Translations under genes and position numbers: made by a program | Notes under the pieces: model-generated | Database searches by the model: none | What the model was told of the DNA's origin: nothing | The model's input: the letters and a program-made list of their open reading frames with translations, nothing else | IMG/VR virus record: IMGVR_UViG_3300021419_000005 | Location: 1,380-65,379 of that record | From: a virus | Lineage: Duplodnaviria; Caudoviricetes | DNA length: 64,000 bases | Strand: one strand, 5' to 3' | Shown here: positions 1,202-64,000 of the stretch, piece by piece | Layout of the letters: every line of letters begins with the position of its first letter | Numbering within the stretch: position 1 is the stretch's first letter

Positions 1202-1345
1202 GCCCAACGCCAAGGCATAGACGCCGTTGCCGGAGCCCGGAGCGGACTTGCATCCGCATAGAGGTGGAGGCGCTTGCGCCGGAGCCTCTATGAGGATTCA
1301 AGGGAGCGTAGGGCGGAGGTTATGGCGTTTCATGCCCAGTTATCC
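1202..1345 (-). repeat. Integron attC-like site 2, interrupted by the prophage (forms attL)
   Basis: Same length and ends as site 1. Stems include CATAGAGG/CCTCTATG, GGCGC/GCGCC and GGCAT/ATGCC. The terminal box reads GTTATCC here but GTTAGGC when joined to the right flank at 63885. Confidence 0.75.
1332..1342 (+). repeat. attL core ATGCCCAGTTA
   Basis: Exact 11-bp match to 63874-63884; arm-type motifs lie immediately inside. Confidence 0.85.
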
Positions 1346-1389
1346 GCCAGAACCACAAAGCACCGTCACCACGGGGCTTTCGGGGAAGG

Positions 1390-1456
1390 CTGTACCGACC
1401 GAAGACCCGTGTCAGGCCGTGTCGACACTTCAATGTCGGTACAGTCGTCGGTACAG
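1390..1456. promoter_or_regulatory. Putative integrase arm-type binding sites (left end)
   Basis: CTGTACCGAC at 1390-1399 and GTCGGTACAG at 1435-1444 and 1447-1456. The same motif occurs three times at 63790-63822. Confidence 0.75.
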
Positions 1457-1490
1457 TGGAGGGCGCGCCACCTCCCCCGCCATAGGCCCT

Positions 1491-2579
1491 ATGGGGGCGG
1501 GTGGGGGAGAGTGTGGATTGGAGGTCACGGGGTCGACCAGCCGTGGACACTGGCTGCTCGTCTCGGGACAGCCCGTCGTAGGGGGCAAAGGCATCTGCGG
1601 TACCCACGATGGGGAAACCTGGAGCATCACCTACAACGACCTCGGAGGGATCTGGGAGGTCGTGAACGAGGACATGGAGGTTCGCCCGTTCGCTTCGGAT
1701 GTCGAGGCGGCCGAGTGGCTTGCCAGCTTCAATGGCTGGGAGGAGCCTCGCCAAGGGGAAGTCCCATCTCCCGGTCTCTCGGTTCCGCCTTTCCCCATGC
1801 CCCACACCGGTCTCCTCGTCGCCTTCGAGGGGGTCGACGGGTCCGGCAAGTCCACACAGGCGGATCTGCTGGTTGCAGCCCTCCACGCGCTCGGGGTCCC
1901 GACTGTTCTCACAAGGGAACCGACGGGCGGGCCATGGGGCCGCCGCATCCGAGAGAGCTTCTCGGGCGAGCGGCTGCCTGCGTCGGAGGAGCTGGATGCG
2001 TTCATGCGTGACCGGGAGGAGCACGTCGCATCCGTCATCCGGCCAGCGCTGCTCGCCGGCAAGGTCGTGGTGGTCGACCGCTACTACCTGAGCACCGTGG
2101 CCTACCAAGGGGCTCGCGGACTCGACCCTGATGTGCTGCTCCACCAGAACGAGGCCATCGCTCCCCGGCCGGACATCACACTCCTATTCGACCTTCCGGT
2201 GGGGGAAGCCCTGAACCGCGTCGGTCGGCGAGGGCAGGCCAACAGCTTCGAAGCTCGTGACGCGCTTGAGAAGGTCGCGCAGATCTACGGCTCGGTGTCG
2301 CTTCCCGGGTTGGTCAGCATCGACGCCAACCGGGCTGTGGCACCAGTGTTCCGCCACGTCCTTCGGCTGGTCCTTGAAGCGCTGCAGGCCTCAGTCAAGC
2401 ACAACTGCCACACCTGCAAGTGGTTCCTCTCGGTCAACGAGGGCGCCCTGGAGTGCCAGCTCGACCACCTCCCCGAGGTCCGCGCATGGCAGAAGGCCCA
2501 GACCTTCCAGCTCAACGAGATGCCGGTTGAGGACGCCGAGGGTTGTCCTCCGTGGTCGCCGAAGGGTGGTGCGCCATGA
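1491..2579 (+). CDS. tmk: Thymidylate kinase with N- and C-terminal extensions (start uncertain: 1491 or TTG 1518)
   Basis: LVAFEGVDGSGKSTQ P-loop, TREP, VVVDRYYLSTVAYQG and PDITLLFD motifs. The listed start at 1227 crosses attL and is unlikely. Confidence 0.9.
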   Translation: MGAGGGECGLEVTGSTSRGHWLLVSGQPVVGGKGICGTHDGETWSITYNDLGGIWEVVNEDMEVRPFASDVEAAEWLASFNGWEEPRQGEVPSPGLSVPPFPMPHTGLLVAFEGVDGSGKSTQADLLVAALHALGVPTVLTREPTGGPWGRRIRESFSGERLPASEELDAFMRDREEHVASVIRPALLAGKVVVVDRYYLSTVAYQGARGLDPDVLLHQNEAIAPRPDITLLFDLPVGEALNRVGRRGQANSFEARDALEKVAQIYGSVSLPGLVSIDANRAVAPVFRHVLRLVLEALQASVKHNCHTCKWFLSVNEGALECQLDHLPEVRAWQKAQTFQLNEMPVEDAEGCPPWSPKGGAP

Positions 2580-2686
2580 CCGCCGCCGCCACCCCACCAG
2601 GCCCCGGTCTTGTCGACCTGCCCACCGTCGTCGCCGCTGCTGCATGGCTCGTCATTGTCATCCAGCTCGCCGCCCACCTCTCCTGA
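2576..2686 (+). CDS. Small single-TM hypothetical protein (36 aa)
   Basis: ATGA overlap with the tmk stop; hydrophobic LPTVVAAAAWLVIVIQLAAHL. Confidence 0.4.
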   Translation: MTAAATPPGPGLVDLPTVVAAAAWLVIVIQLAAHLS

Positions 2687-2813
2687 CTCGCTCCCCTCTG
2701 TCGAGCTGAGACCGGTCCTTCCTGCTCGAGCCTGAACTCCCCCGGGGTGATGTATTGCCCCACAAGGTGCGGCTCGGACGGCGGAGGGGAGCACATCCAC
2801 CTGGAGGCCAACG

Positions 2814-4700
2814 ATGTCGGCCCCACTCAACACCATTCGCTCCACCTACACCCACTTCGGGATGTGCGTTGGCCTCGGCGGCATGTCGCTCGGACTGACG
2901 CGGGCCCATGCCCGTGTTGGCCGCTTCGAAGCCCGCTTCCGCTGCCTTGGAGGCATAGACTCTGACCCGGCGGCGTGCCGCGACTTCGAACGCCTCACCG
3001 GCACCAAGGCCACCTGCCGCGACCTCTTCGACCTCGAGGACTTCCGGGCCTACCACGCCCCCTGCAAGACCGCGCGGAAGCGGTGCAAGGCGTGCGGCAA
3101 CACGGGCGAGCCCCCACCCGGCTGGAAGGAGGTGGCCCCGGCCGACGTCCTCGCCGCGGCCGGCGGAGAGTGCCCCGACGTCTTTGCTTGGAGTCCGCCG
3201 TGCAAGGGCAACTCCGGCCTGTTGAACCGGAAGAGTGCCCAGAGCGAACGCTACCAAGCCCTCAACCGCCTCGTCCTCCGGTGCCTGGTCCTCGCGCTGG
3301 AGGCCTTCAAAGACGACCCGCCGGCCTTGGTCATCATGGAGAACGTGCCCCGCATCGTCCAGCGGAGCCGGGACCTCCTCGACGCCGTCACCGGCACCCT
3401 CCGCGCCTACGGCTACCAGGTCGCCGAGACCACACACGACTGCGGCGAGCTCGGCGGGCTCGCCCAGAGCCGCAAGCGCTTCCTCCTGGTGGCCCGCCAT
3501 GCTCGGAAGGTGCTGCCCTTCCTCTACGAGCCCCCGCGCAGGCGACTGCTCGGAGTAGGCGAAGTGCTGTCCACGCTGCCGATGCCTGACGACGAAGAGG
3601 CCGGGTCCATGCACCGACTGCCTCGCCTGCAGTGGCAGACCTGGCTTCGGCTGGCCCTCATCGAGGCCGGCAAGGACTGGCGCTCCCTCAACCGCCTGAA
3701 GATTCGGGACGGGATGGTCGAGGGCCTGCGGCTCGCTCCGGCGACCGCATGGCACCGCGGAGTCCTCGGAGTCTCTAAATGGGGAGAGGCCGCACCGACC
3801 ATCACCGGTCGCGCAGGAGCGACCACCGGGCGGTTCTCCGTCGCAGACCCTCGACCACCTCGCGAGATTGGGCGCTACCAGCCCTACGGTGTCGTTCCCT
3901 GGGAAGGGCATTGCGGCACCATCACCAGCCAAGCCGCACCCGGAGCCGGCAGCTACTCCGTGGCCGACCCGAGGTGTACCACCAGTCGCGGGGGCGCAGG
4001 CAAGCACCGCGTCACGGGCTGGGCTGAGCCCGCTGGATGCGTCATCGGCGCCTCCACGACCGGCCAGGGTGCCACCGCCGTCGCCGACCCCCGCCTCGAT
4101 TGCGACGCCGACAACCGCCAGACCCGCCGCCACAACAACGTGTACCGGGTCATCCGCTGGGATGAGACCAGCACCACGGTGACCGGGGCAGCGGGCAACA
4201 GTCGGCCCAACGTCGCGGACCCTCGCCCGACCTGGTCGAAGACCGAGGGCGGGGACTGGTCCTCGGGCGGGCACTACGGCGTGGTCCAGTGGGACCAGCA
4301 CACCAAGACCGTCGTCGGCAACGCGAAGCACGACCGCGGCGCCTGGTCAGTCGCAGACCCTCGGCCCCTTCCCGCCCCCAAGGAGCAGTGCTGTCCCGTC
4401 ATCATCTCGCTCGACGGCACCCGGCACCGCCCGTTCACCACGCTGGAGCTCGCCGCGCTCCAAGGGTTCCCCACTCGACTGCTCGATGGGTCCCCGCTTC
4501 GGCTGGATGGTCGCTCGGACTCCGACCACCGCATGCGCATCGGCAACGCGGTCCCGCCCCCGGCCTTCGAGGCGGTGGGCAGCGTGATGCTCGAAACCCT
4601 CCTCCGCCAGCAGATCGGTCAGAGCTTCACGCTCTCGGCCCTGCCCGTCTGGGTGCAGCCCCTCGCCGCCGCCCTCTCCGTCGACACCCTCGAGAACTGA
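2814..4700 (+). CDS. DNA (cytosine-5) methyltransferase, large phage type
   Basis: GxGG motif I, catalytic SPPCKG, IMENV, AQSRKRF, ELAALQGFP and RIGNAVPP; GGAGG RBS. Confidence 0.92.
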   Translation: MSAPLNTIRSTYTHFGMCVGLGGMSLGLTRAHARVGRFEARFRCLGGIDSDPAACRDFERLTGTKATCRDLFDLEDFRAYHAPCKTARKRCKACGNTGEPPPGWKEVAPADVLAAAGGECPDVFAWSPPCKGNSGLLNRKSAQSERYQALNRLVLRCLVLALEAFKDDPPALVIMENVPRIVQRSRDLLDAVTGTLRAYGYQVAETTHDCGELGGLAQSRKRFLLVARHARKVLPFLYEPPRRRLLGVGEVLSTLPMPDDEEAGSMHRLPRLQWQTWLRLALIEAGKDWRSLNRLKIRDGMVEGLRLAPATAWHRGVLGVSKWGEAAPTITGRAGATTGRFSVADPRPPREIGRYQPYGVVPWEGHCGTITSQAAPGAGSYSVADPRCTTSRGGAGKHRVTGWAEPAGCVIGASTTGQGATAVADPRLDCDADNRQTRRHNNVYRVIRWDETSTTVTGAAGNSRPNVADPRPTWSKTEGGDWSSGGHYGVVQWDQHTKTVVGNAKHDRGAWSVADPRPLPAPKEQCCPVIISLDGTRHRPFTTLELAALQGFPTRLLDGSPLRLDGRSDSDHRMRIGNAVPPPAFEAVGSVMLETLLRQQIGQSFTLSALPVWVQPLAAALSVDTLEN

Positions 4701-4714
4701 GCCTGGAGACCCAC

Positions 4715-6358
4715 ATGCCTAACATCACCCCCGAAGAGGTCCGTGCTCTCCGCGAGGCCGCCTCCCCCGGCCCACTTCGGCTGGCCCAGATGGACTCAGC
4801 CCTGGACCCGACCGAGCTCTTCCGCGGCTACCTCGAGCGCGGCTCGGGGCCCGTATGGGGAGTCCTCGTGCCCGAGCATCCAGACACCATCGATGGGTGG
4901 GCAGACCGACCCCAGCATGGTGCGGTCTCCTGCTGGACCGGCAACGGGCCGACTTCCGAGGCCAACGCAAGGCTCTACCTCCGGGCGCCCGACATCGCTG
5001 ACGCGTACCTGACCGAGCACGCTCGCGCTGAAGCTGCTGAGACTGCAATCGGTGCCGCCATCGACACCATCTGCGGCGACGCTCGTGACTCCGGCCCTCC
5101 GCTGCTGGTGCAACTGCAGCACGCGGTCGAGGGCCAGACGAAGCAACTGGCAGACGAGATTCAGCGGTACGAGGAGCAGTACGCCCGCGCCGAAGCCCTC
5201 GCCGCCCTCCTGCGCAAAGCCGCCGCCCCCCTCAACCTCGCCGGGGTCCTCCTCGACGACTCCGACGAGTGGAAGGCCGCCGCCGCAGCCGTGGTCGCGC
5301 ACGTGGACGGCGTCGAGCCCAGTGCCGTGCTCGAGGGGTGGGCGCTGCTCGATGCCCGGCGGGGTGGCGGCCTTGAGCCAGTGGAAGTGGACGTGCTCGA
5401 CCCTGACGTCCCGCCGGTCGACGTGAAGCACTTCGAGTGCAGGCGGTGCGAGTGGGTTGGGCCAAAGTCGGCGCTGGAACACCACATGTCTGGCAGCCTG
5501 TGCCCCAAGTGCCGCATCGTGCTGTGGGACAACGGGCTCCCCTCCACTGAGGCGAGGCTGGTGCCGCCGGCCGACGATGAGGTGGGGCGACTGCGGGCTC
5601 GGGTGGCTGAACTGGAGACCAGCCGGGCGCGAATCATGCGGAAGTACCTCGACCTGAACCGCCAACGGCCCAGCCTGCCGCCCCGTGTCGCCGCATCTGA
5701 CGCCCTTGCGGCCATGGTTGCGGCCGTGTCCGAGCCGCTGGACTGCGGACACGGGCTGGACTGCTGGGATGACGAGCGGAATGTCTGCACCCGATGCGAG
5801 GCCGAGCAACTCCGCGAGCGCGTGGCCGAGCTCGAAGCCGCCTGCGAGCTGCAGCAGAACGACACGACCACACTACGGCGCGCGCTCACCGACTCGCTGG
5901 AGGCCGCTGGCTACAGCGAAGACCCCGACATGGACTGGCCGCGGTTGCCGGGAGTGGTGGCTGCAATGCGGGCGCGCGTGGCCGAACTCGAGGCCATCCC
6001 CGGAACAGCAACCATTGAAGCCGCCATGAAGAACATCGAACGGCTGACTGGGATGCTGGAGGTCGAGTGGCGCGAGGGCGTGCCCAGCGCCGAAGACGTC
6101 GAGGCGCACGCGGCTCGGTCTGCAGCATGGTTGATCGAGGACCGCGGGCTGGGTGAGGTCAGTCCCGCCATCCTCAAGGTCGCCGACGGGTACATCTGGA
6201 TGAGAGACGTCAGCGACCTCGCCCCATGGCGGCAGGTCCACGACCAAATCGCCCGCGCAGTCCCGGCCGGGTGGGAATGGCAGCCCGTCCCCTGGCCCGT
6301 GCGCGGCGCCGACGACGGTGCAGCCTCCGGCGCCGAGGAGGTGGCCGATGAAGGTTGA
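4715..6358 (+). CDS. Ead/Ea22-like mosaic coiled-coil phage protein with CxxC motifs
   Basis: N-terminus LREAASPGP...EANARLYLRAP and repeated RARVAELE; RBS GGAG before ATG 4715. Confidence 0.6.
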   Translation: MPNITPEEVRALREAASPGPLRLAQMDSALDPTELFRGYLERGSGPVWGVLVPEHPDTIDGWADRPQHGAVSCWTGNGPTSEANARLYLRAPDIADAYLTEHARAEAAETAIGAAIDTICGDARDSGPPLLVQLQHAVEGQTKQLADEIQRYEEQYARAEALAALLRKAAAPLNLAGVLLDDSDEWKAAAAAVVAHVDGVEPSAVLEGWALLDARRGGGLEPVEVDVLDPDVPPVDVKHFECRRCEWVGPKSALEHHMSGSLCPKCRIVLWDNGLPSTEARLVPPADDEVGRLRARVAELETSRARIMRKYLDLNRQRPSLPPRVAASDALAAMVAAVSEPLDCGHGLDCWDDERNVCTRCEAEQLRERVAELEAACELQQNDTTTLRRALTDSLEAAGYSEDPDMDWPRLPGVVAAMRARVAELEAIPGTATIEAAMKNIERLTGMLEVEWREGVPSAEDVEAHAARSAAWLIEDRGLGEVSPAILKVADGYIWMRDVSDLAPWRQVHDQIARAVPAGWEWQPVPWPVRGADDGAASGAEEVADEG

Positions 6359-6494
6359 ACTCATCTTCGCTTGGTACGACCTGTGGGTCGGCTTCTACTG
6401 GGACCGGAAGAACCGGTGGCTCTACTTCCTGCCTGTGCCGATGTTTGGACTGGTGTTCAAATTTGGCGCCGAGGAGGTGGTCGATGCCCAATGA
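6348..6494 (+). CDS. Small aromatic-rich phage protein (48 aa, below the ORF-track cutoff)
   Basis: MKVELIFAWYDLWVGFYWDRKNRWLYFLPVPMFG...; GAGGAGG RBS; overlaps both neighbours. Confidence 0.7.
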   Translation: MKVELIFAWYDLWVGFYWDRKNRWLYFLPVPMFGLVFKFGAEEVVDAQ

Positions 6495-6762
6495 GTACCG
6501 CCTGCAAGGCTGCGGGCTCCCCTGCACGCTGGACGACTGCCCGCCGGGGCTGTTCATGGCCCTGAACGACGACGGCACCCCGTCTGGGCACGTGGGCCTG
6601 AAGACGCAGTACGGCCTCACCAAGCTCTCGGATGCCGGCAACGGTCGGGTCTACGCCAACGTCTCCAGCGAGACGGAAGCCTTCGTGGCTGCGAGTGGGG
6701 AGTTCTGGGGCGCCGAGGGGCTGGTCGTGCCTCTCAGCGTGGAGGTGGTCGATGCCGAGTGA
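6484..6762 (+). CDS. Hypothetical phage protein
   Basis: MPNEYRLQGCGLPCTLDDCPPGLF...; GGAGG RBS; translationally coupled to its neighbours. Confidence 0.65.
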   Translation: MPNEYRLQGCGLPCTLDDCPPGLFMALNDDGTPSGHVGLKTQYGLTKLSDAGNGRVYANVSSETEAFVAASGEFWGAEGLVVPLSVEVVDAE

Positions 6763-7492: not shown

Positions 7493-7710
7493 AGCGGCTG
7501 GCCAACTTCCTCAAGCCGACCGCGCTGCACTTCCTGCGAATCGCCGCAGTCCTCCTCTTCTGCAGAACCCTGGCCGCTGTCAACGGTTGGGACCCCACCC
7601 ACGTCATCGCCGTGACCGCGCTGTGCTTCGCGATGACGAACACACCCGAAGACGGATGCACATCTGTGCACGAGCCCAGCCGCGACGACCGCGGGACGGA
7701 GGACGCATGA
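7489..7710 (+). CDS. Small membrane hypothetical protein
   Basis: ATGA overlap; two hydrophobic segments. Confidence 0.5.
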   Translation: MKRLANFLKPTALHFLRIAAVLLFCRTLAAVNGWDPTHVIAVTALCFAMTNTPEDGCTSVHEPSRDDRGTEDA

Positions 7711-7952
7711 CCGAACACCGCTTCTACCCACAAGCCACAGGCGAACTCAAGACGGCGCATGGCGAAGACCCGTTTGATGCGCTGCACAACCTCATCGAAG
7801 CGACACCACCCGGAGAGGCGTTCAAGCTGATCGATGAAGACATCGTGTGGGAGCCCCACGAGAACGCTCCACCTGAACTTTGCATCACGTACCAAGTGGA
7901 ACTCAGGTTTTCCGTGGCCATTTCTGAGAAGCCCAAGGCGGAGACAACATGA
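7707..7952 (+). CDS. Hypothetical protein
   Basis: MTEHRFYPQ...; GGAGG RBS; ATGA overlaps on both sides. Confidence 0.6.
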   Translation: MTEHRFYPQATGELKTAHGEDPFDALHNLIEATPPGEAFKLIDEDIVWEPHENAPPELCITYQVELRFSVAISEKPKAETT

Positions 7953-8455: not shown

Positions 8456-8474
8456 CAGGACCGACCGTAGCCCC

Positions 8475-8501
8475 AAACCCCGCCGAGTGATCGGCGGGTT
8501 T
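8475..8501 (+). terminator. Probable intrinsic terminator
   Basis: AAACCCCGCCGA-GTGA-TCGGCGGGTTT hairpin at the end of the operon. Confidence 0.6.
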
Positions 8502-8543
8502 CGGCGTTCACGAGGCCACCAACGAATCTCGATTTCACCACAA

Positions 8544-38427: not shown

Positions 38428-39911
38428 TCCCCGGCGTGGTCACCGGTGTCCGCGTCGTCGTCGGGAACCGTGGTCTCAGCGAAGAGCGGCCCGGTCTCGA
38501 CGTCGGCCTCCTCGATTTCCTTGTGGATGGCCTCCATCTGCTCGGACGAGGCATCCGGGAGGACGCGCTCGGCTTGGCGGCGGGCGACCACACGGCGGAA
38601 CGTCGGAGAGAGCTGGTGGGCCTCGGTGGCCAGCGCAGCGGACTCCAGCCAGGCCATGATGTCTTCCTGGTGCCAGCCGTCGAGGCCGCTCACCTGGATG
38701 TCGCCGGGGTCCCCGCGGAGGCCCGCGATGAGGCGCAGCACGTCGCGCATGGCGTCGAGGACGAGGCCAGCGAACGCCGCGAGCATCACCTCGGCAGCCC
38801 GCCAGTCCGCGTTCTTCGACTCGCCGGACATCCGTGCGCGGGTGGAGTCGCTCGAGGCGGCCTGTGCCATCTGGGAGACCACACGGTGGAGGTCGTCGCG
38901 GAGGCGCTCGACCTGCTTCTCCAGGTGCTCGAAGGCGACTCCGGAGGGAGCGACGAAGTAGACCTCGTCCCGGCCGTTCTTGTCTCGCTCGGTCTTCATG
39001 AAGTGGCCGTGGCCGAGGGCACCGATGCCCTTCTCCGCCCACTTCGAAGCGACAACCAGCAGCTCGTTGGCCGCCTGGTGCAGCGCCCAGTGGAGGTCGT
39101 TCTCGGAGCGGGTGAGCGCGATGGCCGGGTCTTCGAGGCGGCCCATGGGCCACAGCAGGATGGGCAGCTCCAGCCGGAAGACCGGGAGGGAGCCCATGTT
39201 GTGCGGCGCCTTGAGGACCTCGGTAGCCTCGTCGTCTCGGCCGGGCTCCGACTTCTGCTCCGTGGCCGTCCACTCCCAACGCTGGATGAGCGTGCCGGTC
39301 ACGTAGGTCCACCGGAACACCTTCTTCCGGGCCTCACCCACCCCACCGCGCTTGCTCACGACGTCGTGGATGACCACCCAGGCGAGTCGGCCGGAGTCAT
39401 CCTCACCCCAGTCGATGACCTGGTCGCCCGAGAGGCCGACGAGGAACGCATCGAGGAAGCCGCCGGTCAGCTCAGCCTGGAGGTTGCCTGGCTTCTGGAC
39501 CTCTTCGCCTTCCTTCGCCACGGGGCGACGGGGGAGGTTCACCCACACCCAGGACTTCCGCTGGACGAGCGCGTCGAGGAAGCGGGCGCGCCAGAACTCA
39601 GCCCAGGACGAGCCCTGCCGGTCGACGTCCTCGAAGAAGCGAGTGTAGAACTCGCCTTCGAGACCGGCGACGCTCGGTGCCTCCGAGAAGAGCATCGAGG
39701 CCATCGACCCGATGATGTTGCCCGTGTAGTTGATGTAGTGGGCCAGCTCGAGGCGCTCTTGGCGTACGTCCGAAGGCTCCATCTTCCGCATGGGGAACCA
39801 GCTGGCTTTCAGGCCGTCCCACGCGGCCCCACCATCGTGGAGGGCCTGCATCCGGGCGAGTCGCTCGCCGTCGTAGGACGGGTGGCGCTGGTTCAGGACT
39901 CCGACCCTCAC
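38424..39911 (-). CDS. Portal protein
   Basis: 495 aa after TerL; ERLELAHYINYT, QVIDW, HNMGSLPV and SGESK. Confidence 0.85.
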   Translation of the reverse strand: MRVGVLNQRHPSYDGERLARMQALHDGGAAWDGLKASWFPMRKMEPSDVRQERLELAHYINYTGNIIGSMASMLFSEAPSVAGLEGEFYTRFFEDVDRQGSSWAEFWRARFLDALVQRKSWVWVNLPRRPVAKEGEEVQKPGNLQAELTGGFLDAFLVGLSGDQVIDWGEDDSGRLAWVVIHDVVSKRGGVGEARKKVFRWTYVTGTLIQRWEWTATEQKSEPGRDDEATEVLKAPHNMGSLPVFRLELPILLWPMGRLEDPAIALTRSENDLHWALHQAANELLVVASKWAEKGIGALGHGHFMKTERDKNGRDEVYFVAPSGVAFEHLEKQVERLRDDLHRVVSQMAQAASSDSTRARMSGESKNADWRAAEVMLAAFAGLVLDAMRDVLRLIAGLRGDPGDIQVSGLDGWHQEDIMAWLESAALATEAHQLSPTFRRVVARRQAERVLPDASSEQMEAIHKEIEEADVETGPLFAETTVPDDDADTGDHAGE

Positions 39912-41581
39912 CGAACACCTTCCTGGTTGACCATGTGGGGCCCACGGCCACCGATGCGAGCGACGCCACCTTCGACGGCGTCGGGGCCGTCGTCGTGGTC
40001 GCCGTTGGGGAAGTCGTCGAATTGCGCCAGGACCGGCTGGGGGATGGCGCTGTTGAAGAGGAGCCAGCCGTTCGCCGCCGACACCTCGAGGCCGGCGATG
40101 CGGTCCTCCTTGTTGGTCGTCGACGGGTCCAGCTCGAGGGCCAGCTGGAAGAACCGGCCCTCGGCCTCACGCTTGGCGCGCTGGCGCCGGAACTCGTTGT
40201 CGAGGAGCTTCTGGAAGCCGTTGCTCTCCAGGCTGCCGCGCTGGATGCCGAAGCGCTCGGCCTCGGCCCACACAGCTGCGAGCTGGCCCGTCGGGCGGGC
40301 TCGCCGCATCCAGACCGCGAGCACGTAGGTGTACCCGAGCCGGTCGCGGGCCACGCAGGCGACCGCGGCGTAGTCGGAGCCACTGCCCCCCATCGAGGGG
40401 TCCCACCGCAGGTACCGGCGGGTCTCCGAGAGCTTGACCTCTCGGCGCCGTCCCTGTTCGTCCGCGACGGTGACGATGACGAGCTCGCCATGTCGCTCGA
40501 CGAGGTCGAAGCGGCGGAATCGTTCCGAGACGAAGAGCTGGTCGTCCGGGTTCCGCGGGTCGTTCTGTCGCTCCCGCATGAAGGAGCGCAGGCCGTTCGA
40601 CCAGATCTCCAGGTACAGATTGAACAGTGGGGCTGCGACCTCGTCGAGGACTTCCGCCCCCGCGTCCATCTCCTCGCGGTTGGCCTCGTAGAAGGCGCGG
40701 ACGCAGGCTCGGCGGACAGGCTCGTCGCCGAGCTCGAGGTCCAGGTAGATTCGACGGGCTCGGTCCCACAGGTCGGTGCGGTCAGGCCAGCTGACGATGG
40801 CCTGGTACTTCTTGCCCACCCAGGCCGCGGCCTTGAGCAGACGGGCCAGGACCGCATCCGAGTGGAGGACGGTCCCGTTCCAGTCGAGCACCAGCTGGGG
40901 CTTGTTCGGCCCCGCCTTGATGATGTCGTCCTGGAGGAAGCGGTGCCACAGGTTCCGCTGGTCCGCGCTCCGGACTCGGTCGGGGCGCTCGCCGTCGTCC
41001 ACCACCATGCGGGTGGGGCGGATGGCGTCGATGTTGCAGCCGCGGACCTGGCTGTTGAAGCTTTTCGCGATGAGACCGAAGAGCGGGAGCCCCGGACCGG
41101 CACCCTGCCACTGCTTCACGCCGCCTCTCACCTCGAAGGGCCCGAAGAGGCGCCAAAGCTCGCCGGTCTCGTCGTCAAACCAGGACCGGATGTGCTTCGA
41201 GATGGACTCCGCAAGGCCCTGTTCAGCTGAGACGACCAACGCGACGCGGTCCAGCCCGTAGACGAGGGCGTGGGCGACGATGGCCTTGGCGGTCGTGGTC
41301 TTCGCGATGCCCCGGGGAGCGGCGGTCACCCGGAAGGTGTTGGCCGTCCGCTCATGCCAGGGAGGGTCGACCCTGCCCAGGACGTCCCGGTGGAACGCAT
41401 TCCATGGCAGCCCGAACACATCCGGCCAGCACCACTTGGCGAAGAAGCCGATGTCGTAGCGGCCTCGCGCACGGATGAGGTCATCCTTCAGCTGCGGATC
41501 CGCTTCCATCCAGAGCCGCTCGAACTCGGTCGGAGGCAGATCCCGAACGCGGGCCGCCTGCTGCTCCCATGCTGTCGCCAT
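39908..41581 (-). CDS. terL: Terminase large subunit
   Basis: Walker A APRGIAKTT, Walker B MVVDD, and nuclease motifs WDPS, ESNGFQ and HDDGPDA. Confidence 0.93.
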   Translation of the reverse strand: MATAWEQQAARVRDLPPTEFERLWMEADPQLKDDLIRARGRYDIGFFAKWCWPDVFGLPWNAFHRDVLGRVDPPWHERTANTFRVTAAPRGIAKTTTAKAIVAHALVYGLDRVALVVSAEQGLAESISKHIRSWFDDETGELWRLFGPFEVRGGVKQWQGAGPGLPLFGLIAKSFNSQVRGCNIDAIRPTRMVVDDGERPDRVRSADQRNLWHRFLQDDIIKAGPNKPQLVLDWNGTVLHSDAVLARLLKAAAWVGKKYQAIVSWPDRTDLWDRARRIYLDLELGDEPVRRACVRAFYEANREEMDAGAEVLDEVAAPLFNLYLEIWSNGLRSFMRERQNDPRNPDDQLFVSERFRRFDLVERHGELVIVTVADEQGRRREVKLSETRRYLRWDPSMGGSGSDYAAVACVARDRLGYTYVLAVWMRRARPTGQLAAVWAEAERFGIQRGSLESNGFQKLLDNEFRRQRAKREAEGRFFQLALELDPSTTNKEDRIAGLEVSAANGWLLFNSAIPQPVLAQFDDFPNGDHDDGPDAVEGGVARIGGRGPHMVNQEGVR

Positions 41582-42379: not shown

Positions 42380-43672
42380 CTATCGGCTGCAGCTCGGCCC
42401 AGCGCCAGGAGTTCCGAAATCAGCCAACTGGCTTGTGGTTCCGTAGTTCCGCATGTAGTACGCGTACCCAGGACTGCTCGTTGTGCTGCACCAGTTGTAG
42501 CCCGAGTCGTTGTCGGAGCTGGTGTGCCGGGTAGCATCGAGCTCGATGCTCCAGCCGTAGTAGGAGAGGTTGACAGATGGCCACCCACCGGAGCCGTTGT
42601 AGTAGGTCGTCGAGTCAACAGACACCCCTGACGCGGCCAGCGACAGCGTTCCGGAATCCGCCAACCTCAGGCTGCTGTTGAATGTCGAGCCCAAGGCAGA
42701 GGTGCTGTTTACATCGCTGCCGTAGACGTAGTCACAGTCGCTCCCAACGTACAGGTCGCTGAAACAGAAGACGAAGCGGTCACCGGATGCCACGGAGACT
42801 GCGTCGGGCGCCACGTAGAAGCCCGCCCCCCCGAAGTCGACGAGGAATCCGTCGAGATAGGCAACGCTCCCCGACGCGTTGAACACCTCAAACCACTCGC
42901 CATCGGGCTCATGCTCGCCATGGTAGTGGATCTCGGAAAGCACGAGAGCGCCAGGTACCAGGAGGTGTTCATCCCGCACTTCGTCACAGTCATTGTCGAT
43001 CCCGTCAGCCACCTCCGATTCACCAGGATTGACGTTGGAAGCTCCATCGTCACAGTCTGTTCCGTCCGCGACGTACATTGACGGCGGAGAGCATGCCTGA
43101 ACAGTGGTGGTCGTCGTACCGTAGCCGTCACCGTCGGAATCGAGGTACCAAGTCACCACGTCCGCGGCATCGCTTTCGTCGACTGTCCCGTCACAGTCGT
43201 TGTCAGCCTCATCGCACACCTCTGTTGCATCGGGATGAACGTTGGCATCAGCATCGTCACAGTCCTCGGGTGCAGCAAACCCGTCCGAGTCTCCGTCGGC
43301 CAACGATCCGCCCGAGTCCTCCGTCAGTCCGGAGTCATCGTCCACGAGGCTTCCATCCGATTCGGAGTCGGAGTCGGTTCCGTCGGCGTTCCCGGTGTTG
43401 CCGTCGCCGCTTGAAGCTGCATCCTCCCTGCACTGGTACACACACCAGACTTCATCCACATCGGAATACTGGGCGTGCCCGCCCGACCAGCCAGCCTGCA
43501 TCTCCAGTGCTTCGTTGTGCGTCTCTGACGCCCCCACCTCGGACACTTCACCTTCACCGCAGGTTTGCACCGCGAGTTCCGTGCATGCCTCAATCTTGTC
43601 GTTGCGGCACCCTTGGAGCAAAAGGACAGCCAACGGGGCTGCCCACAATCGGAACGCTTGGTTGTCGGTCAT
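42380..43672 (-). CDS. Lipoprotein with acidic Cys-rich putative metal-binding repeats and a lamin-tail-like domain (cargo)
   Basis: Lipobox LQGC; DCDD...HPDATEVCDEADNDCDG repeats; LVLSEIHY...GEWFEVFN. Confidence 0.85.
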   Translation of the reverse strand: MTDNQAFRLWAAPLAVLLLQGCRNDKIEACTELAVQTCGEGEVSEVGASETHNEALEMQAGWSGGHAQYSDVDEVWCVYQCREDAASSGDGNTGNADGTDSDSESDGSLVDDDSGLTEDSGGSLADGDSDGFAAPEDCDDADANVHPDATEVCDEADNDCDGTVDESDAADVVTWYLDSDGDGYGTTTTTVQACSPPSMYVADGTDCDDGASNVNPGESEVADGIDNDCDEVRDEHLLVPGALVLSEIHYHGEHEPDGEWFEVFNASGSVAYLDGFLVDFGGAGFYVAPDAVSVASGDRFVFCFSDLYVGSDCDYVYGSDVNSTSALGSTFNSSLRLADSGTLSLAASGVSVDSTTYYNGSGGWPSVNLSYYGWSIELDATRHTSSDNDSGYNWCSTTSSPGYAYYMRNYGTTSQLADFGTPGAGPSCSR

Positions 43673-56674: not shown

Positions 56675-56683
56675 GGGGGGACG

Positions 56684-58096: not shown

Positions 58097-58620
58097 TGGA
58101 CGCCTCCACCCACGACCTGGACGCCATCCAGGATTCCCTCGGTGCCCACGGCAACCCCATCGAGGTCGCCGTCTGCTGGCTCCTGTCCGTGCTCGACCAC
58201 GCCGAGGAGTACCCCGCGTCCATCGAAAACGATGCTGGACACCTCCAGCAACTGCGAGACCGGCTGGCGCTGCACTCCTTGGGCGACGACATCCCGGACG
58301 ATGGCTGGATTCAGTTCGGCTTCGTCAACCAGATCATGGGTCGCCCGCCACCCGAGTCGAACAGCATCACTCTGCTCCAAGCCCTCCAGGCCAAGGCACG
58401 GGCAGAGGCCCAAAACCGCCGCAATGTGAAGCCCGGCGAGATGCACACCGTCCACACGACGGCAGCCGACCGGCTCATCGCAGCCGCCATCACGGCCCGT
58501 GACCACGAAGGCGAGAACCCTACCAACCCCGACCCCATCGTCATCATCGGCGACGGCCCCGACTACTGCAAGGCGGTGTTCGTCCTGCGATTCCCAATGC
58601 CGGTGGTGTCCGATGCCTGA
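58096..58620 (+). CDS. Hypothetical protein
   Basis: TGATG overlap. Confidence 0.65.
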   Translation: MDASTHDLDAIQDSLGAHGNPIEVAVCWLLSVLDHAEEYPASIENDAGHLQQLRDRLALHSLGDDIPDDGWIQFGFVNQIMGRPPPESNSITLLQALQAKARAEAQNRRNVKPGEMHTVHTTAADRLIAAAITARDHEGENPTNPDPIVIIGDGPDYCKAVFVLRFPMPVVSDA

Positions 58621-59587
58621 CACCACCACCATCGAATGGACCGCCACCCGCCTCGAGGACGGCACCGTCCTGCCAGGCTTCACCTTCAATCCGTGGACCG
58701 GCTGCACCAAGGTCTCTCCGGCCTGCCGCAACTGCTACGCGGAGGGCTTCGCTCGCCGCAACAGCAAGGTGTTCGGGCAGTGGGGGCCGGGCTCGAACCG
58801 GAAGCGCACCAGCGACGCGAACTGGCGCAAGCCCCTCAAGTGGAACCGTGAGGCCGAGGCCAGCGGCATCCGCCGGAAGGTCTTCTGTGCCTCCATGGCT
58901 GACGTGTTTGAGCCCCGGCCCGAGGTCGACGCGTGGCGCCTGGACCTCTGGAGGCTCATCAAACAGACACCGCACCTGGACTGGTTGCTGCTCACGAAGC
59001 GGCCGGACGTCATGGCGTTGTGGGGAACACTGCAAGGCTGGCCAGTAAACGCGTGGGCCGGGACCACGGTCGAGGACCAGCAGCGGGCGGACGAGCGCAT
59101 CCCGCTATTGTTCCAGGTTCCAGCCCGGATTCGGTTCCTGTCGTGTGAGCCGCTGCTGGGGCCGGTGAACTTGCTTGGCGTAGACACCGTCGCCGCCCGG
59201 TCACTGGGGCCGCACTCCCTTTTGTGGCCGGCCGACCTGATCGACTGGGTCATAGCCGGCGGTGAGTCGGGACCAAACGCTCGACCGAGCCACCCAAGCT
59301 GGTTTCGTTCGCTGCAGACCCAGTGTGCAGAAGCGGACACCGCCTTCTTTTTCAAGCAGTGGGGGGCATGGTGCCCCCGCTCCACCGGCCACTGTCTCGA
59401 CGACTCTGCATCTCGGGTCAAGCTCGACGAGACCGGCCGCAACACAGCCACCGACGAGGTCGTTGCCGGTGTCCCCGGATGCGGGACGGGTCGCGAGCCC
59501 GTGTGGATGAACCGAGTCGGCAAGAAGCGAGCCGGCCGCCAACTCGACGGACGCACCTGGGACCAGGTGCCGGAGGCGACCCCATGA
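58613..59587 (+). CDS. DUF5131 / phage Gp37-Gp68 family radical-SAM-like protein
   Basis: TIEWT, FNPWTGCTKVSPACRNCYA, VFCASMADVF, LLTKRP, SCEPLLG, WVIAGGESG and FFFKQWG. Confidence 0.92.
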   Translation: MPDTTTIEWTATRLEDGTVLPGFTFNPWTGCTKVSPACRNCYAEGFARRNSKVFGQWGPGSNRKRTSDANWRKPLKWNREAEASGIRRKVFCASMADVFEPRPEVDAWRLDLWRLIKQTPHLDWLLLTKRPDVMALWGTLQGWPVNAWAGTTVEDQQRADERIPLLFQVPARIRFLSCEPLLGPVNLLGVDTVAARSLGPHSLLWPADLIDWVIAGGESGPNARPSHPSWFRSLQTQCAEADTAFFFKQWGAWCPRSTGHCLDDSASRVKLDETGRNTATDEVVAGVPGCGTGREPVWMNRVGKKRAGRQLDGRTWDQVPEATP

Positions 59588-60303
59588 CCGACGCCATGCG
59601 AACGGACCCGTTCATGGTCCGCTGCCTTGAGCTCACCGACGAGCAGTGCTGGACCGGTGCGACGCTCGACGCCACTCTCGGGCAGCTCATCGAACATGCC
59701 GTGGACGTGGTGGACCGCGGTGACCGCGACCCCGGCGTCTTCGACATCGAGGTCTTCTCCAACGTCCAGGTCTGCCCCGGGCCAGCTGCGGGCAACGACC
59801 CGGACACTTGCCCATGCGGTGAGACCCACCACGAGGAGCACGAGGAGCTCATCTTCGAACGGTACCCGCGACACGCGGTCTGGCCGGTACGGGTCTACAT
59901 CGGGCAGGCCGCCGGCGAGGACTTCGAGACGACGCTCTGGTCGTTCCGGACCTGGACGGAGGACGACGTCGAGGCCACCCGGGAGCACATCACTACCGAC
60001 AAGGGACTCCGCGTCGTCGACGGCTGGCGCCACCGTCAGTGCGACTGGCTTGCTGTGAGCAAGCGCCCCCTCTACGGCCGGTTCACGGTCACCCATCTGC
60101 CTTCCGGCGGCTTCCTCCTTGGACCTTCCAAGGGAGCGCCCCATCCGGAGTCTTGCTCCACTCGCGACGAGGCCCTCGACCTCCTCGTCTTCCTCTCCCA
60201 CCAGAAGTGGCTCCGGGACCTGACGATTCCTGCAGGTCCCGAAGCCGCTGACCGCCTCAACGCCCTTGTCGACCAATGGAGGGGCACATGCCCTGGCAGC
60301 TGA
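59584..60303 (+). CDS. Hypothetical protein
   Basis: ATGA overlap; GGAGG RBS. Confidence 0.65.
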   Translation: MTDAMRTDPFMVRCLELTDEQCWTGATLDATLGQLIEHAVDVVDRGDRDPGVFDIEVFSNVQVCPGPAAGNDPDTCPCGETHHEEHEELIFERYPRHAVWPVRVYIGQAAGEDFETTLWSFRTWTEDDVEATREHITTDKGLRVVDGWRHRQCDWLAVSKRPLYGRFTVTHLPSGGFLLGPSKGAPHPESCSTRDEALDLLVFLSHQKWLRDLTIPAGPEAADRLNALVDQWRGTCPGS

Positions 60304-60617
60304 CCATCATCCACGAGCAGCCTGGCGATGACCGTGAGCGAGTCTGCGTGCTCCGTCTCGCGGGCCCTGGCCCCGACGTCGTCCTCTCGCACGCGGCTCG
60401 CCACCTCACCATCACCGGACGCCGCGTGCCCCGGGGAGGCCTCGTCGGCCCCTACGGCTTCGACTTGGTTTCCCTCGCCACCCGTGGTCCCCAAGCCGCA
60501 TGCAACGAGCTGCTGGGCCGCACATCGACGGCCGCAGAACGGGGTTGGTTGATGGACCTGGTGGTTCGGTTCTCGCGGGCGTGGCTCGACCTCGACGAAC
60601 GGCGAGGTGCAGCATGA
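60288..60617 (+). CDS. Hypothetical protein
   Basis: GGAGG RBS; coupled to its neighbours. Confidence 0.6.
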   Translation: MPWQLTIIHEQPGDDRERVCVLRLAGPGPDVVLSHAARHLTITGRRVPRGGLVGPYGFDLVSLATRGPQAACNELLGRTSTAAERGWLMDLVVRFSRAWLDLDERRGAA

Positions 60618-61171
60618 AGACGGCGACGAACGAGCAACTGGCCGCGCTGACTGTGCCGGCGACGTTGCCGGGGGTGGCGCGACACACCACGCCGACGGTC
60701 GTCACCGACTGCGTGCGCAGTGCTGGCCGGATGCTCTGGCCCGGTGAGCGCGGTGTTGTCTTCGGTCCAACAACGTTCCAAGACGACCGACCATGTGTGT
60801 GGCTCGTCCTGCCGCCGTCTGTCGACGAAGAGCCCGACGTGGGACAGGTTCCGCTGTTGTCCCTTGGGGTCGACCTCACCCACGCAACTGGGCGGGCCCA
60901 TGTGGCTTGGGCCATTGGGCGCAACCAGGGCCTCCACCCGGAGTCCAGCCCACTTGAGCTGGTACAGCTGCCGATGATTGAGCCAGACGAACACCTCCCA
61001 GAGCCACACATCAGCATTGGGCCACACTCAGACCTGTCCCTTGGCGGCAAGGTCTGGGAACAGCTGGAACAGCTTGATGGGGAGGACGAGACACGCCTTC
61101 CGGACGGCTCTCGGTGGGTGGACGCTGAAGCGCTCCGCATCATCGCCCTCCACATCCTCGGAGATGCCTGA
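60614..61171 (+). CDS. Hypothetical protein
   Basis: ATGA overlap; C-terminal RLPDGSRWVDAEAL. Confidence 0.65.
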   Translation: MKTATNEQLAALTVPATLPGVARHTTPTVVTDCVRSAGRMLWPGERGVVFGPTTFQDDRPCVWLVLPPSVDEEPDVGQVPLLSLGVDLTHATGRAHVAWAIGRNQGLHPESSPLELVQLPMIEPDEHLPEPHISIGPHSDLSLGGKVWEQLEQLDGEDETRLPDGSRWVDAEALRIIALHILGDA

Positions 61172-61491
61172 TGGCCCGCATCCTGATTCGAGTCCGCTCC
61201 GGCATCCGCACTGGCCCCTCCACTCGCTGGGGCACCCGCAAGGCACTGTTCGCCAACCCCCACTGGCTGCGACCTGGCTGGTCCGTCGAGCAGGTTGGGG
61301 TGTGGGGAGTCGTCGCCACCGGTCCCGAACCCAAGACCATCGACGAGCTCGTCAACGCCACCGAGGAGATGCCTCCCTTGGTGTTCCGCGTGGTCGGTAA
61401 GCACGAGCGCATCAACCTCCGCGGAGAGCCCCACATTCGCAACACGGTCGAGAACGGCCGCATCACACGGTCTGTGGAGGTGTTCGAGTGA
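61171..61491 (+). CDS. Hypothetical protein
   Basis: TGATG overlap. Confidence 0.6.
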   Translation: MARILIRVRSGIRTGPSTRWGTRKALFANPHWLRPGWSVEQVGVWGVVATGPEPKTIDELVNATEEMPPLVFRVVGKHERINLRGEPHIRNTVENGRITRSVEVFE

Positions 61492-62051
61492 CCACTTCAC
61501 CCCAGCCCGAGCCCCGCCGCGGTCGTCCGCCCATCAGCGTCCTCGAGCACTGGCGCCGCGAGATGGTCTCCCGCAGGGTGACCATCACCGATGTCGCGAA
61601 GTACTTCGGTGTCGGTCCTCGCAGGGTCCACCAGTGGTGGCGGGACACCGGCCTGACCGAGAAGTGGCCCTACGCGGGCCGCGGACAGGCCATGGTGCCA
61701 GGCGCGCTCAGCAGTACGAGTGGCCCCTCCACTCCACAGGTGCGCGAGTTCCGCCGGAAGCGTCTCCGAGAGCTGCTCAAGGAGGTGCCCGACGCGTCGG
61801 ACCCGTGGCTCACCAACAAGCTCCGTAGCGAGGGAGTCCCCACTTCTGACCATGCGGTCCGCCAGGACCGCCGGGTGATGTGCATCCCTCCCCTGCAGGA
61901 ACGCCGAGAAGCGGAAATCGCCGACATTCGGAAGCACTACCCGAGTCTGGGTGTGGCCGACGTCTGGGACATCCTCCACGCCGACGGCTGGCAGATCAGC
62001 GAAAGGCAGGTCGCCACCATCTTCGGCTCCAAGGCATTGGAGGCGGCATGA
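61488..62051 (+). CDS. Multi-HTH hypothetical regulator
   Basis: TITDVAKYFGVGPRRVHQW and further HTH-like segments. Confidence 0.6.
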   Translation: MTTSPQPEPRRGRPPISVLEHWRREMVSRRVTITDVAKYFGVGPRRVHQWWRDTGLTEKWPYAGRGQAMVPGALSSTSGPSTPQVREFRRKRLRELLKEVPDASDPWLTNKLRSEGVPTSDHAVRQDRRVMCIPPLQERREAEIADIRKHYPSLGVADVWDILHADGWQISERQVATIFGSKALEAA

Positions 62052-62404
62052 GTCGCATCCTGGAAGCACTGGCGACGCTTGCCAGCGAGGCGACGCGCAT
62101 CCGCAAGGCGGTCGAGAAGATCGCAGCACGCGCCGATGTCGGCGACCTCATGACAGTGCCGCAAGCAACCAAGTTCCTCGGCATCGACTCCACAGTCGCT
62201 CGCCGCTGGATGGCCGAGCGCAACCTCATCCACGAGCTGCACATTGAAGGGCGAGAACGACCGGTGCGGCGAGTCGACAGGCAGGAACTCCTCCGCGCGG
62301 TGAAGCGGGACGGCAGGCCTGAGCCAAGGCCCAGCACTCGGACCCGACGAACGCCGGGACGAGGTCTGTCGGCGCTGGCAAACGCGGCGAAGAAGGCCTC
62401 GTGA
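62048..62404 (+). CDS. Excisionase-like HTH protein
   Basis: LMTVPQATKFLGIDSTVARRW; overlaps the integrase start. Confidence 0.7.
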   Translation: MSRILEALATLASEATRIRKAVEKIAARADVGDLMTVPQATKFLGIDSTVARRWMAERNLIHELHIEGRERPVRRVDRQELLRAVKRDGRPEPRPSTRTRRTPGRGLSALANAAKKAS

Positions 62405-63576
62405 AACCGCCGAGCAAGGTAGGCTCCGGAGCGGAGTCCACCATGCCCACCCGCAAGCCAAGGCGACCGAAGCCGGTGCATATGGGAGACGTGCGCGCGA
62501 GAGCGAAGCGTGCTCCCAAGTCTTCGGACCCGACGCGTTGGTACTGGCAGGCGGTGATTCGACGAGACGGCAAGGACGTCACCGTCGTCTCGGGTTGGTT
62601 TACGCGCAAGGAGATTTCCAAGGAGCTCGCCAAGCGGGTCGCGGAAGATGACCTCGACCGTCCTCGCGAGACCGGGACCATTGCTGGACTGGTGGATGCC
62701 TGGGCCGAACACGCCGCTACGGTTGCGCGCACATCCAAGAAGACCAAGGCAGCCCAGGTTCACGCGGGCAAGCGAATCGTCACGCACATGGGGGCTGTGT
62801 TGGTCGACCGAGTGCGTAAGGACACCATCGAATCGTTCCAAACGGCGTTGCTCGACGCAAACTACAGCCCCGCGACCATCCGCCTGACCCTCGTGTACCT
62901 GGGCCAAGCTTGGAACTATGGGCGTGAGCGTGGCCTGGTGCCCGACCGTTCGCTTCCGAAGGTTCGGCCACCGGTCCCGAGGCGGGTTCAGAACGACTAC
63001 GTCCCGACTGCCTCAGAGGCACGCCGTGTCCTGGAGCAGCTCGAGGAAGACAACTGGCAGCGCCGGGCGTTGGAGCTCATCCACGCTACCGGGTGCCGAG
63101 TCAACGAGGTTCTCCAACTCACGTGGGACGACTTCCGGCTGGAAGGACCGCGGACGAACGTCACAGTGCGGGGCAAGCGAACAAGCCGCACAGACGGAGT
63201 CCGCATCGTGGCGCTGGCTCCTTCGACGGTCGAGTACCTCCTCGCGATGCGAGAGGTCCAGCCCTCGACCAATGTACCGTTTCACGGCTACGCCAAAGCC
63301 AATGACCGCACCCTACTCCGGAACCTGAAGGCGTCGTGCCGGAAGGCCGGGGTGCCCGAGTTTCGGACCCATGCATTGCGAGCGCTGGCCATGACGCAAG
63401 CAATGCAGGCCAAGATTCCCCCGCACGTTGCCGCCGCCCACTTCGGGGTCACAGTCCCCGTGATGCTCACCCACTATGCACAGGTGGATGCCACCGATGC
63501 AGCCGAGACCGCCGCGGCGATTGGTCGTGCGGCACCCGAGCGCGGCAAGTTGCTCCCATTCCGCCGAAAGGGGTAG
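62401..63576 (+). CDS. int: Tyrosine recombinase / phage integrase (start may be ATG 62443)
   Basis: ATGCRVNEVLQLTWDD, VRGK, THALR and THY; N-terminal arm-binding-like and core-binding regions. Confidence 0.93.
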   Translation: MKPPSKVGSGAESTMPTRKPRRPKPVHMGDVRARAKRAPKSSDPTRWYWQAVIRRDGKDVTVVSGWFTRKEISKELAKRVAEDDLDRPRETGTIAGLVDAWAEHAATVARTSKKTKAAQVHAGKRIVTHMGAVLVDRVRKDTIESFQTALLDANYSPATIRLTLVYLGQAWNYGRERGLVPDRSLPKVRPPVPRRVQNDYVPTASEARRVLEQLEEDNWQRRALELIHATGCRVNEVLQLTWDDFRLEGPRTNVTVRGKRTSRTDGVRIVALAPSTVEYLLAMREVQPSTNVPFHGYAKANDRTLLRNLKASCRKAGVPEFRTHALRALAMTQAMQAKIPPHVAAAHFGVTVPVMLTHYAQVDATDAAETAAAIGRAAPERGKLLPFRRKG

Positions 63577-63625
63577 ACGGTACCGGATACGTATGCTAAT
63601 CCGTATCCACCAAGCAGGGGCAGTC

Positions 63626-63865
63626 GTGAGCCAAGAGACATGCACAATCGCCGCACGCGGCGTGCCGGTGAAGCTCCGAGAGGCGGCAGACACCCGCGCC
63701 GCAGCGCTCGGTATGTCGCGGTCTCGCTATCTCGAGCACCTCGTAGCGACCGATTGTGCACGTGTTGGACTTTGGCTTCCGGTGCCGGAGTCGGTACAAT
63801 CCGTCGGTACACCTGTACCGACAGCCGCCGAGAACAGCCGTCAGCAGGGAGGTACCAGCGAATGA
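63626..63865 (+). CDS. Ribbon-helix-helix (CopG-like) protein
   Basis: TIAARGVPVKLREAADTRAAALGMSRSRYLEHLV; upstream inverted repeat GGATACG/CGTATCC at 63585-63608. Confidence 0.6.
   Translation: MSQETCTIAARGVPVKLREAADTRAAALGMSRSRYLEHLVATDCARVGLWLPVPESVQSVGTPVPTAAENSRQQGGTSE
63790..63822. promoter_or_regulatory. Putative integrase arm-type binding sites (right end)
   Basis: GTCGGTACA at 63790 and 63803; inverted CTGTACCGAC at 63813-63822. Confidence 0.75.
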
Positions 63866-63873
63866 CGGAGAGA

Positions 63874-63884
63874 ATGCCCAGTTA
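63874..63884 (+). repeat. attR core ATGCCCAGTTA
   Basis: Exact match to 1332-1342, about 300 bp downstream of the integrase, followed by GGC to give GTTAGGC. Confidence 0.85.
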
Positions 63885-64000
63885 GGCGACGTTGGCCTGA
63901 CCTGCCACCACATCACGACTCGGCTCCTGCCGGATTCGACCCATCAAGTGGTTCGGAACGTGGAGGGATGTAGGGAGTGACGGTCCCCCTCCCCTCCGAC

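Follow-up and report, generated by a model that had tools for sequence, protein, structure and literature searches.

A temperate contractile-tailed prophage located inside the attC-like recombination site of an integron-like cassette array

The subject of this report is a prophage that occupies most of a 64,000-nucleotide (nt) stretch of metagenomic DNA (hereafter, the window), i.e., bases 1380-65379 of the 65,379-nt IMG/VR virus record IMGVR_UViG_3300021419_000005 (linear; CheckV completeness of 79). It is a temperate, contractile-tailed prophage of an uncultured marine bacterium, and it lies inside the recombination site of a gene cassette array, which represents a new class of target for the site-specific integration of prophages. 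The insertion is exact, the same site exists in empty form, the target has the nature of a cassette recombination site, the phage attachment site carries arm-type repeats on both of its sides, and the phage encodes a tyrosine integrase with the catalytic residues in place. Based on these findings, we consider it highly probable that the phage integrated via its own lambda-type integrase into the attC-like core of an integron-like array.

The 11-bp core ATGCCCAGTTA has exactly two matches in the 64 kb, both on the plus strand: the left copy at 1332-1342, which represents the crossover region of attL, and an identical right copy at 63874-63884 (attR), beside the integrase gene; none of 100 dinucleotide shuffles of the window contained two matches. 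Counting one core copy, the element (1343-63884) has a size of 62,542 bp. The left core constitutes, apart from the outer bases, the final 11 nt of a 144-nt imperfect palindrome (1202-1345, plus strand; site c2, in the role of attL), that is, it lies in the terminal arm of a hairpin, as the original prediction had stated. This hairpin is whole in the lysogen and only its outer box differs, reading GTTATCC instead of GTTAGGC. The palindrome has two further copies in the record, one being the neighboring site c1 (81-224, plus strand; 144 nt, with ends GGCCAAC ... GTTGGGC and ten of the 11 core bases, ATGCCCAGTTG) and the other located upstream of the window (C1:176-319). Host DNA flanks the element over 2.7 kb on the left and 116 nt on the right in the record; the latter (63885-64000) represents the end of cassette "S0", the owner of site c2, and runs on into c2 in the contigs that carry the empty site.

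In-silico excision of 1343-63884 reproduced the predicted change of the outer box into GTTAGGC (GCCTAAC on the other strand), opposite GTTGGGC, and the resulting junction was the same as metagenome locus L041 at 255 of 255 comparable bases (139 on the left and 116 on the right); the copies of site c2 in loci L044 and L041 are 98.7-100% identical. This match to L041 sets the element at the above-mentioned size, with no phage DNA past 63884, and no phage genes were found beyond that position, an outcome that would have spoken against the original prediction. Further, a search with a 22-nt pattern matching attR as well as an empty attB returned nine metagenome loci, and the sequence to the left of the core in all nine is an attC-like body with no phage DNA, so that all nine are empty sites. 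The contigs in question carry up to eight sites each. Hence, both the empty attB and the further cassettes on the two sides that had been anticipated do exist.

An assembly artefact, i.e., a phage genome joined to a cassette array via a short common word, deserves consideration, since the record is a metagenome contig and the repeats are very abundant: word depth in the four seawater runs that hold the phage was ~1500-3000 for bins of the site vs. 7-20 for the unique flank and the phage (these depths sum over all organisms and do not represent copy numbers). We give this explanation almost no credence, however, because an assembler would not be misled by a word as short as 11 bp, the two junctions can be resolved to a single exact empty site, attL is crossed from position 1315 by an independent 8,819-nt Logan contig (although its run may be the source sample), and the depth of the phage is similar to that of the flank in X1 (19.8 vs. 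17).

The target is a real cassette recombination site of attC-like nature. A 21-nt pattern taken from the conserved end of the repeat matched five contigs of a single 7.7-Mb metagenome-assembled genome (MAG; G001), in which at least 20 copies of the site are found on small contigs, and G001 together with the metagenome loci provided a collection of 43 unique full-length sites of 142-148 nt. The portions of G001 that were inspected have ~60% G+C, and the single protein compared (L038 14544-15968) is nearest to Atlas clusters of Myxococcota, a weak indication that makes the label of this MAG (uncultured Enterobacterales) seem doubtful. The end triplets AAC and GTT are invariant in all 41 sites that were aligned (alignment A1), and the outer four bases are variable and for the most part conform to R/Y, i.e., the inverted end boxes RYYYAAC ... 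GTTRRRY are present. RNAalifold predicted 35 consensus pairs for the 41 sites, 17 of which have compensatory changes on both sides. The unpaired spacer of the site is asymmetric (5 nt vs. 2 nt), and about two-thirds of the aligned sites have a bulged C before ATGCC, which the others lack. A search of Rfam with the sites gave no matches (the attC model itself is not part of Rfam). Site lengths in relatives fall at 64-74, 142-148 and ~235 nt. Short forms (64-74 nt) also stand beside 144-nt forms in one and the same array (L087 9307-9374 and 11191-11254; L047 ~5411-5545), so that it is the central part that varies in length, as it does in families of attC sites.

The sites are arranged as expected for cassettes: they are co-oriented, 0.9-3 kb apart, with one site per mostly single-gene cassette, and most spacers are unique to one contig. 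In the window, for instance, a single-gene cassette with complementary ends (GTTGGGCGCC.. / ..GGCGCCCAAC) is found on the minus strand between the two sites (225-1201), and its longest open reading frame (ORF; 302-1108, minus strand; 268 aa) has no Pfam family. A boundary rule ties each site to its neighbor, with the bases that follow the GTT of a site being the reverse complement of those that precede the next AAC; this was true at four of four bases for 31 of 34 unique adjacent pairs, compared to a mean of 3.8 of 34 when partners were shuffled. The mean complementarity across the boundary was 8.71 of 10 bases vs. 5.12 for shuffled partners (maximum of the shuffles, 5.94). It is this boundary signature, together with the covarying half of the structure (17 of the 35 pairs), that upholds the attC-like nature claimed originally. 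The complementarity of the cassette ends extends at least 12 nt past GTT/AAC (e.g., window 225-236 vs. 1190-1201), with a systematic exception at position 8, where the cassette start has G and the end predicts A in ~30 of the 34 pairs, as well as in the relatives G070 and G099; this exception results in a G-T wobble on one strand only.

Three genomes also contain the end of such an array. Contigs G070:C23, G099:C51 and G001:C65 all show, on the side that corresponds to the right of the window, an AAC junction without a hairpin (i.e., attI-like), followed 170-235 bp further on by a divergent recombinase gene that heads the co-oriented sites. In G070:C23 (L107 492-6640), four 74-nt sites of the same family obey the boundary rule at 4/4, the AAC is located at 5648-5650, and the recombinase gene at 5819-6640; in G099:C51 (L109 222-4531), a site of ~235 nt is associated with a 3-kb cassette and the AAC junction lies ~235 bp before the recombinase gene. 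In G001:C65 (L031 4542-10090), the last cassette stops at an AAC without a hairpin and an ORF starts 170 bp on, pointing away from the array, but only a remnant of the recombinase gene is left. That is, the first 90 residues represent an IntI/Xer-type N-terminal domain, and the fusion to an IS66 transposase means that the array recombinase gene is destroyed in the MAG. The fusion takes the form of a chimeric 222-aa ORF (L031 4542-5210, minus strand), with the recombinase N-terminal domain (residues 10-90) in frame with the last ~110 residues of the transposase.

These arrays share with classical integrons and with clusters of attC sites lacking integron integrases (CALINs) the co-oriented AAC ... 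GTT hairpins, the complementarity at boundaries, the hairpin-less attI-like junction and the divergent recombinase gene, but they differ in the recombinase. Full-length homologues of the C65 fragment are 274-294 aa long, with PF13495 and PF00589 domains, and the array-linked enzymes score 152-238 bits against TIGR02249 (cut-off, 265) and do not have the 41-residue insertion that is found in the true IntI of related genomes. Consistently, no match over the NCBIfam cut-off of TIGR02249, i.e., no integron integrase, was found in G001, and an IntI with the IntI-specific additional domain was not found as the cognate enzyme of the sites; the role of this domain (the I2 helix) is taken from PMC7790495. 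A true IntI is present in eight of 41 relatives of G001, and the site family in five of 151 relatives and in none of the eight IntI-positive ones; the IntI-proximal loci of the relatives showed no similar arrays, and the attI-like stretch of C65 has no match elsewhere among 61 genomes. (One true IntI gene, in G009:C122, has five tandem 114-nt repeats ~0.9 kb away, at L070 304-923.) Judging from these sequences, the host platform is integron-like and not a classical integron, no classical intI having been found. The claim of an integron as target was therefore correct as to the hairpin sites, the arrays and the boundary rule but has to be narrowed to "integron-like", given that a classical intI is missing and the recombinase lacks the IntI-specific insertion.

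The layout of the three array ends implies that the top strand of the cassettes is the minus strand of the window, as had been proposed, and that the exchanged end is the window-left end of each site. The minus strand of the left core reads TAAC-TG-GGCAT, in which TAAC ends the R'' box, TG is a 2-nt spacer and GGCAT is the L'' box. The core is therefore at the R''-L'' (ORF-proximal) end, with ~130 nt separating it from the end at which cassettes are exchanged. The opposite assignment, with the window plus strand as cassette top and the core at the crossover end, was abandoned in view of the three array ends, of the trio of loci L043/L045/L047, which is simpler to explain if the top strand is the window minus strand, and of the sharing of spacers: among pairs of sites at least 96% identical, four share the right spacer only, one the left only, 51 neither and three both (31 were unscorable). 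Two other guides to orientation were dropped, namely the length of the arms relative to canonical attC sites and the fold stability of the two strands. With respect to the latter, all 41 sites have a more stable fold in the window plus-sense strand than in its complement (by 5.6 kcal/mol on average), a bias caused by invariant G-T pairs, and the Vibrio attC sites of MK672802 that served as calibrator show no such bias (bottom strand more stable in only 3 of 11).

On the phage side, the gene next to the right core encodes a tyrosine integrase (62401-63576, plus strand; 391 aa) and ends 298 nt before the core. Its product matches PF00589 (49 bits) and phrog_1 (5e-40), the catalytic residues R (GCRVNE), K (RGKR), HxxR (HALR), and H and Y (THY) can be read in its sequence, and ~100 aa precede the core-binding part; its NCBIfam matches are weak and Xer-type, with no integron-integrase model among them. 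Arm-type sites on the arms of attP are bound by lambda-family integrases, and such an architecture is present here. The motif TCGGTACA has six matches in the window vs. 0.63 expected (0 of 100 shuffles reached six), and all six are found 49-113 bp inside the prophage ends in a mirror-like order, three on the P' arm (1391-1398, minus strand; 1436-1443 and 1448-1455, plus strand) and three on the P arm (63791-63798 and 63804-63811, plus strand; 63814-63821, minus strand). The 144-nt stretch centered on attP is predicted to adopt a branched fold (z of -1.6 to -1.95) with no site-like terminal-arm hairpin. An ORF of 82 aa without a Pfam family (63617-63865), part of which resembles a ribbon-helix-helix protein by eye, is located between the integrase gene and attR and overlaps the three P-arm motifs.

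The mechanism that we propose would be conservative site-specific recombination between the phage attP, consisting of the core with three TCGGTACA arm sites on each side, and the 11-bp core within the host cassette recombination site, with the R''-L'' end of the attC-like hairpin in the integron-like array serving as attB and the heterobivalent (lambda-type) tyrosine integrase of the phage itself as the most likely catalyst. No gene is interrupted by the insertion and the hairpin stays whole, with only the outer four bases of one box being altered, and the prophage is located between the coding part of a cassette and its recombination site. Alternatively, the IntI-like recombinase of the array could have inserted the phage by attC x attC-like recombination, the phage integrase being irrelevant in this instance. 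The core does contain GTT, which is the triplet where integron integrases cut, the adjoining phage sequence (ATCCGCCAG) is loosely like the consensus of cassette starts, and Qi et al. (PMC9892861) propose that IntI acted on a prophage bounded by attC sites. Nonetheless, we regard this scenario as very unlikely, considering that the phage junction is at the non-exchanged end of the site (given the orientation from the three genomes), that the junction identity extends over 11 bp and not a triplet, that six arm-type repeats are found in attP but no hairpin of the attC kind, and that a complete phage integrase gene is found so close to the core. The array recombinase is not expected to cut at the core end, and hence we infer that the phage integrase, acting on duplex DNA, rather than the array recombinase carried out the insertion.

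It is also possible in principle that the phage is not adapted to the repeat, i.e., that the core is there by chance and the insertion used a secondary or accidental site, the usual attB being elsewhere. A single insertion is at hand, no other phage junctions were found among the loci collected, and no close integrase relatives could be placed in a genomic context, all of which would be in line with this explanation; still, we find it improbable. The identity of the 11 bp is perfect, while secondary sites usually differ from the attP core; its position coincides with the block of the repeat that is conserved best; no transfer RNA (tRNA) gene or other usual phage target was found in the window; and the same core in the same upstream context is seen in 19 of the 43 sites that were collected, which is also the count of sites that have all 11 core bases (in a set that is biased, nine loci having been fetched with a core-containing pattern). 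The original prediction, that the integrase is specialized for the conserved end of the cassette repeats, is thus in agreement with the data as far as conservation is concerned, since each of the ten core bases ATGCCCAGTT shows a conservation of 90% or more in the 41-site alignment, but it depends on a single lysogen junction and has to be corrected in that the core is at the non-exchanged end. The conservation of the core would be in line with a phage that has adapted to this repeat because the repeat is conserved, present in many copies and non-essential.

Several results weigh against integration by a dedicated phage integrase at the ORF-proximal end of the sites. Only one pair of lysogen junctions was observed. 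The attP junction that should accompany such a phage was not found, with zero matches in viral_contigs and no interpretable joint of an attP or circular form among the contigs of the four seawater runs (absence from contigs is weak evidence). The candidate directionality factor just upstream of the integrase gene (62048-62404, plus strand; 118 aa) has a weak match to the excisionase-type family HTH_17 (PF12728), whose score of 21.3 bits is below the Pfam cut-off of 27. Beyond the cluster to which the integrase belongs, no relative exceeds 36% identity (151 relatives plus 182 genomes of the class of G001), and the sites of these relatives are uninformative on attC targeting. With respect to orientation, the direction of ORFs favors the minus strand weakly (19 vs. 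12 of 35), cassette S0 has the same right-hand site in two of two contigs, and one pair of sites shares the left spacer plus most of the site, the last two observations fitting the opposite orientation.

The searches for relatives of the integrase were otherwise as follows. None was found in viral_contigs, a search for homologous proteins returned only the integrase's own cluster (P0001-P0004, on contigs of up to 68,405 nt), and G001 has no homologue. Of ten loci with distant homologues, one has tRNAs nearby, and at another the gene is adjacent to a weak match of R1 (15.8 bits) that was not counted as attC; a second pattern used on viral_contigs gave six loci, none with an R1 match.

Compared to known systems, the element resembles temperate phages of the lambda/P4/P22 type, whose heterobivalent tyrosine integrases target conserved structured genes such as those for tRNA and transfer-messenger RNA (tmRNA). 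The similarities include a tyrosine recombinase of the phage's own encoded next to the attachment site, a short identical core with an exact empty site, arm-type repeats on the two arms of attP, and the choice of a target that different strains have in common and that is still functional, or is restored, after insertion. The difference is that the target here is not a gene but the recombination site of another mobile-DNA system, with many near-identical copies per genome. CTX-phi and other integrative mobile elements exploiting Xer (IMEXs) integrate at dif, borrow the host XerCD and have no integrase; the phage studied here likewise lands in a host recombination site but comes with its own integrase. 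Elements that home to the attC sites of cassettes are known in the form of IS1111-attC elements and group IIC-attC introns (PMC3001079 and PMC11187229); these are 1-2 kb long and rely on a DEDD transposase with a guide RNA or on a retrohoming ribozyme, as opposed to a 62.5-kb phage with a tyrosine integrase.

The original prediction further held that no well-described tailed prophage is known to target attC. This stands in the sense that we found no description of a phage integrase that uses attC as its attB (supplements were not covered), but a partial precedent exists, and the attC-like site is better called a hardly described landing site. Specifically, the ends of the Vibrio anguillarum prophage Va_90-11-286_p16 are flanked by two attC sites with a common 68-bp repeat, which Qi et al. 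2023 (PMC9892861) explain by IntI/SOS activity and capture of an integron segment. In the case reported here, by comparison, the core is 11 bp, no cassette or host gene is carried, and attP has arm sites of its own. The deposited sequence of the Vibrio prophage (MK672802) includes thrS, infC, L35, L20, two integrases and ~13 kb of cassettes, with thrS, infC, rpmI and rplT located between the phage integrase and the integron integrase (L074 23843-28053); this "complete genome" may include host DNA beside the prophage.

As for the remainder of the element, the gene set between the two cores is that of a contractile-tailed, myovirus-like phage. The prophage body (1343-63873) encodes a thymidylate kinase domain, a C5 methylase, tail fiber, baseplate, sheath, major head, portal and large terminase proteins, and an AAA_24 protein. 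When ten window proteins were compared with PHROGs (two of the ten had no family), the large terminase (39908-41581) matched phrog_38 at 6e-63, and matches were obtained for the portal (9e-30), major head protein (2e-8), tail sheath (2e-16), baseplate wedge (2e-26) and tail fiber (5e-12). The guanine-plus-cytosine content of the window is 61-70%, and a scan of the window with Rfam revealed no group II intron. Accessory genes encode the thymidylate kinase domain, directly behind attL, the C5 cytosine methylase, and a third protein with MopE metal-binding repeats and a lamin-tail domain (1227-2579, 2814-4700 and 42380-43672 for the three). Apart from the phage, G001 contains another repeat (0.8 kb or longer, with 99% identity between the copies on two contigs) that abuts truncated sites (L036 1-914, L039 1-912, and the contig ends L033/L032). 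Truncation takes place at model positions ~34-58 and the contigs end within the repeat, which has no Pfam or Rfam family and is probably a second mobile element, targeting the middle of the sites.

Phages usually attach at a tRNA gene or at a gene present in a single copy. Homing to cassette sites would, instead, provide a phage with a large number of equivalent targets, in a region both dispensable and conserved between strains, and it predicts variable positions of insertion, polylysogeny and easy capture of neighboring cassettes. It would also couple two systems of mobile DNA, the insertion splitting the array and placing 62 kb between the upstream and the downstream cassettes; cassette arrays are reportedly, according to one preprint (bioRxiv 10.1101/2024.07.02.601686), a store of anti-phage genes. 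With the attB/attP pair being short and well defined, these ideas are directly testable with the cloned integrase. A more far-reaching view, which is possible but which we consider doubtful at present, is that the ORF-proximal ends, amounting to tens of equal sites per genome, are the primary attB of this phage, that the prophage has become part of a mobilizable "cassette" of ~63.6 kb, and that the platform is an undescribed relative of integrons, driven by an IntI-like enzyme without the I2 (additional) domain. If this is true, the array recombinase could excise, move or delete the prophage as part of that ~63.6-kb "cassette". Finally, arrays of hairpin sites whose IntI-like enzyme lacks the domain presumed to read folded attC would bear on how the single-strand recombination of cassettes evolved.

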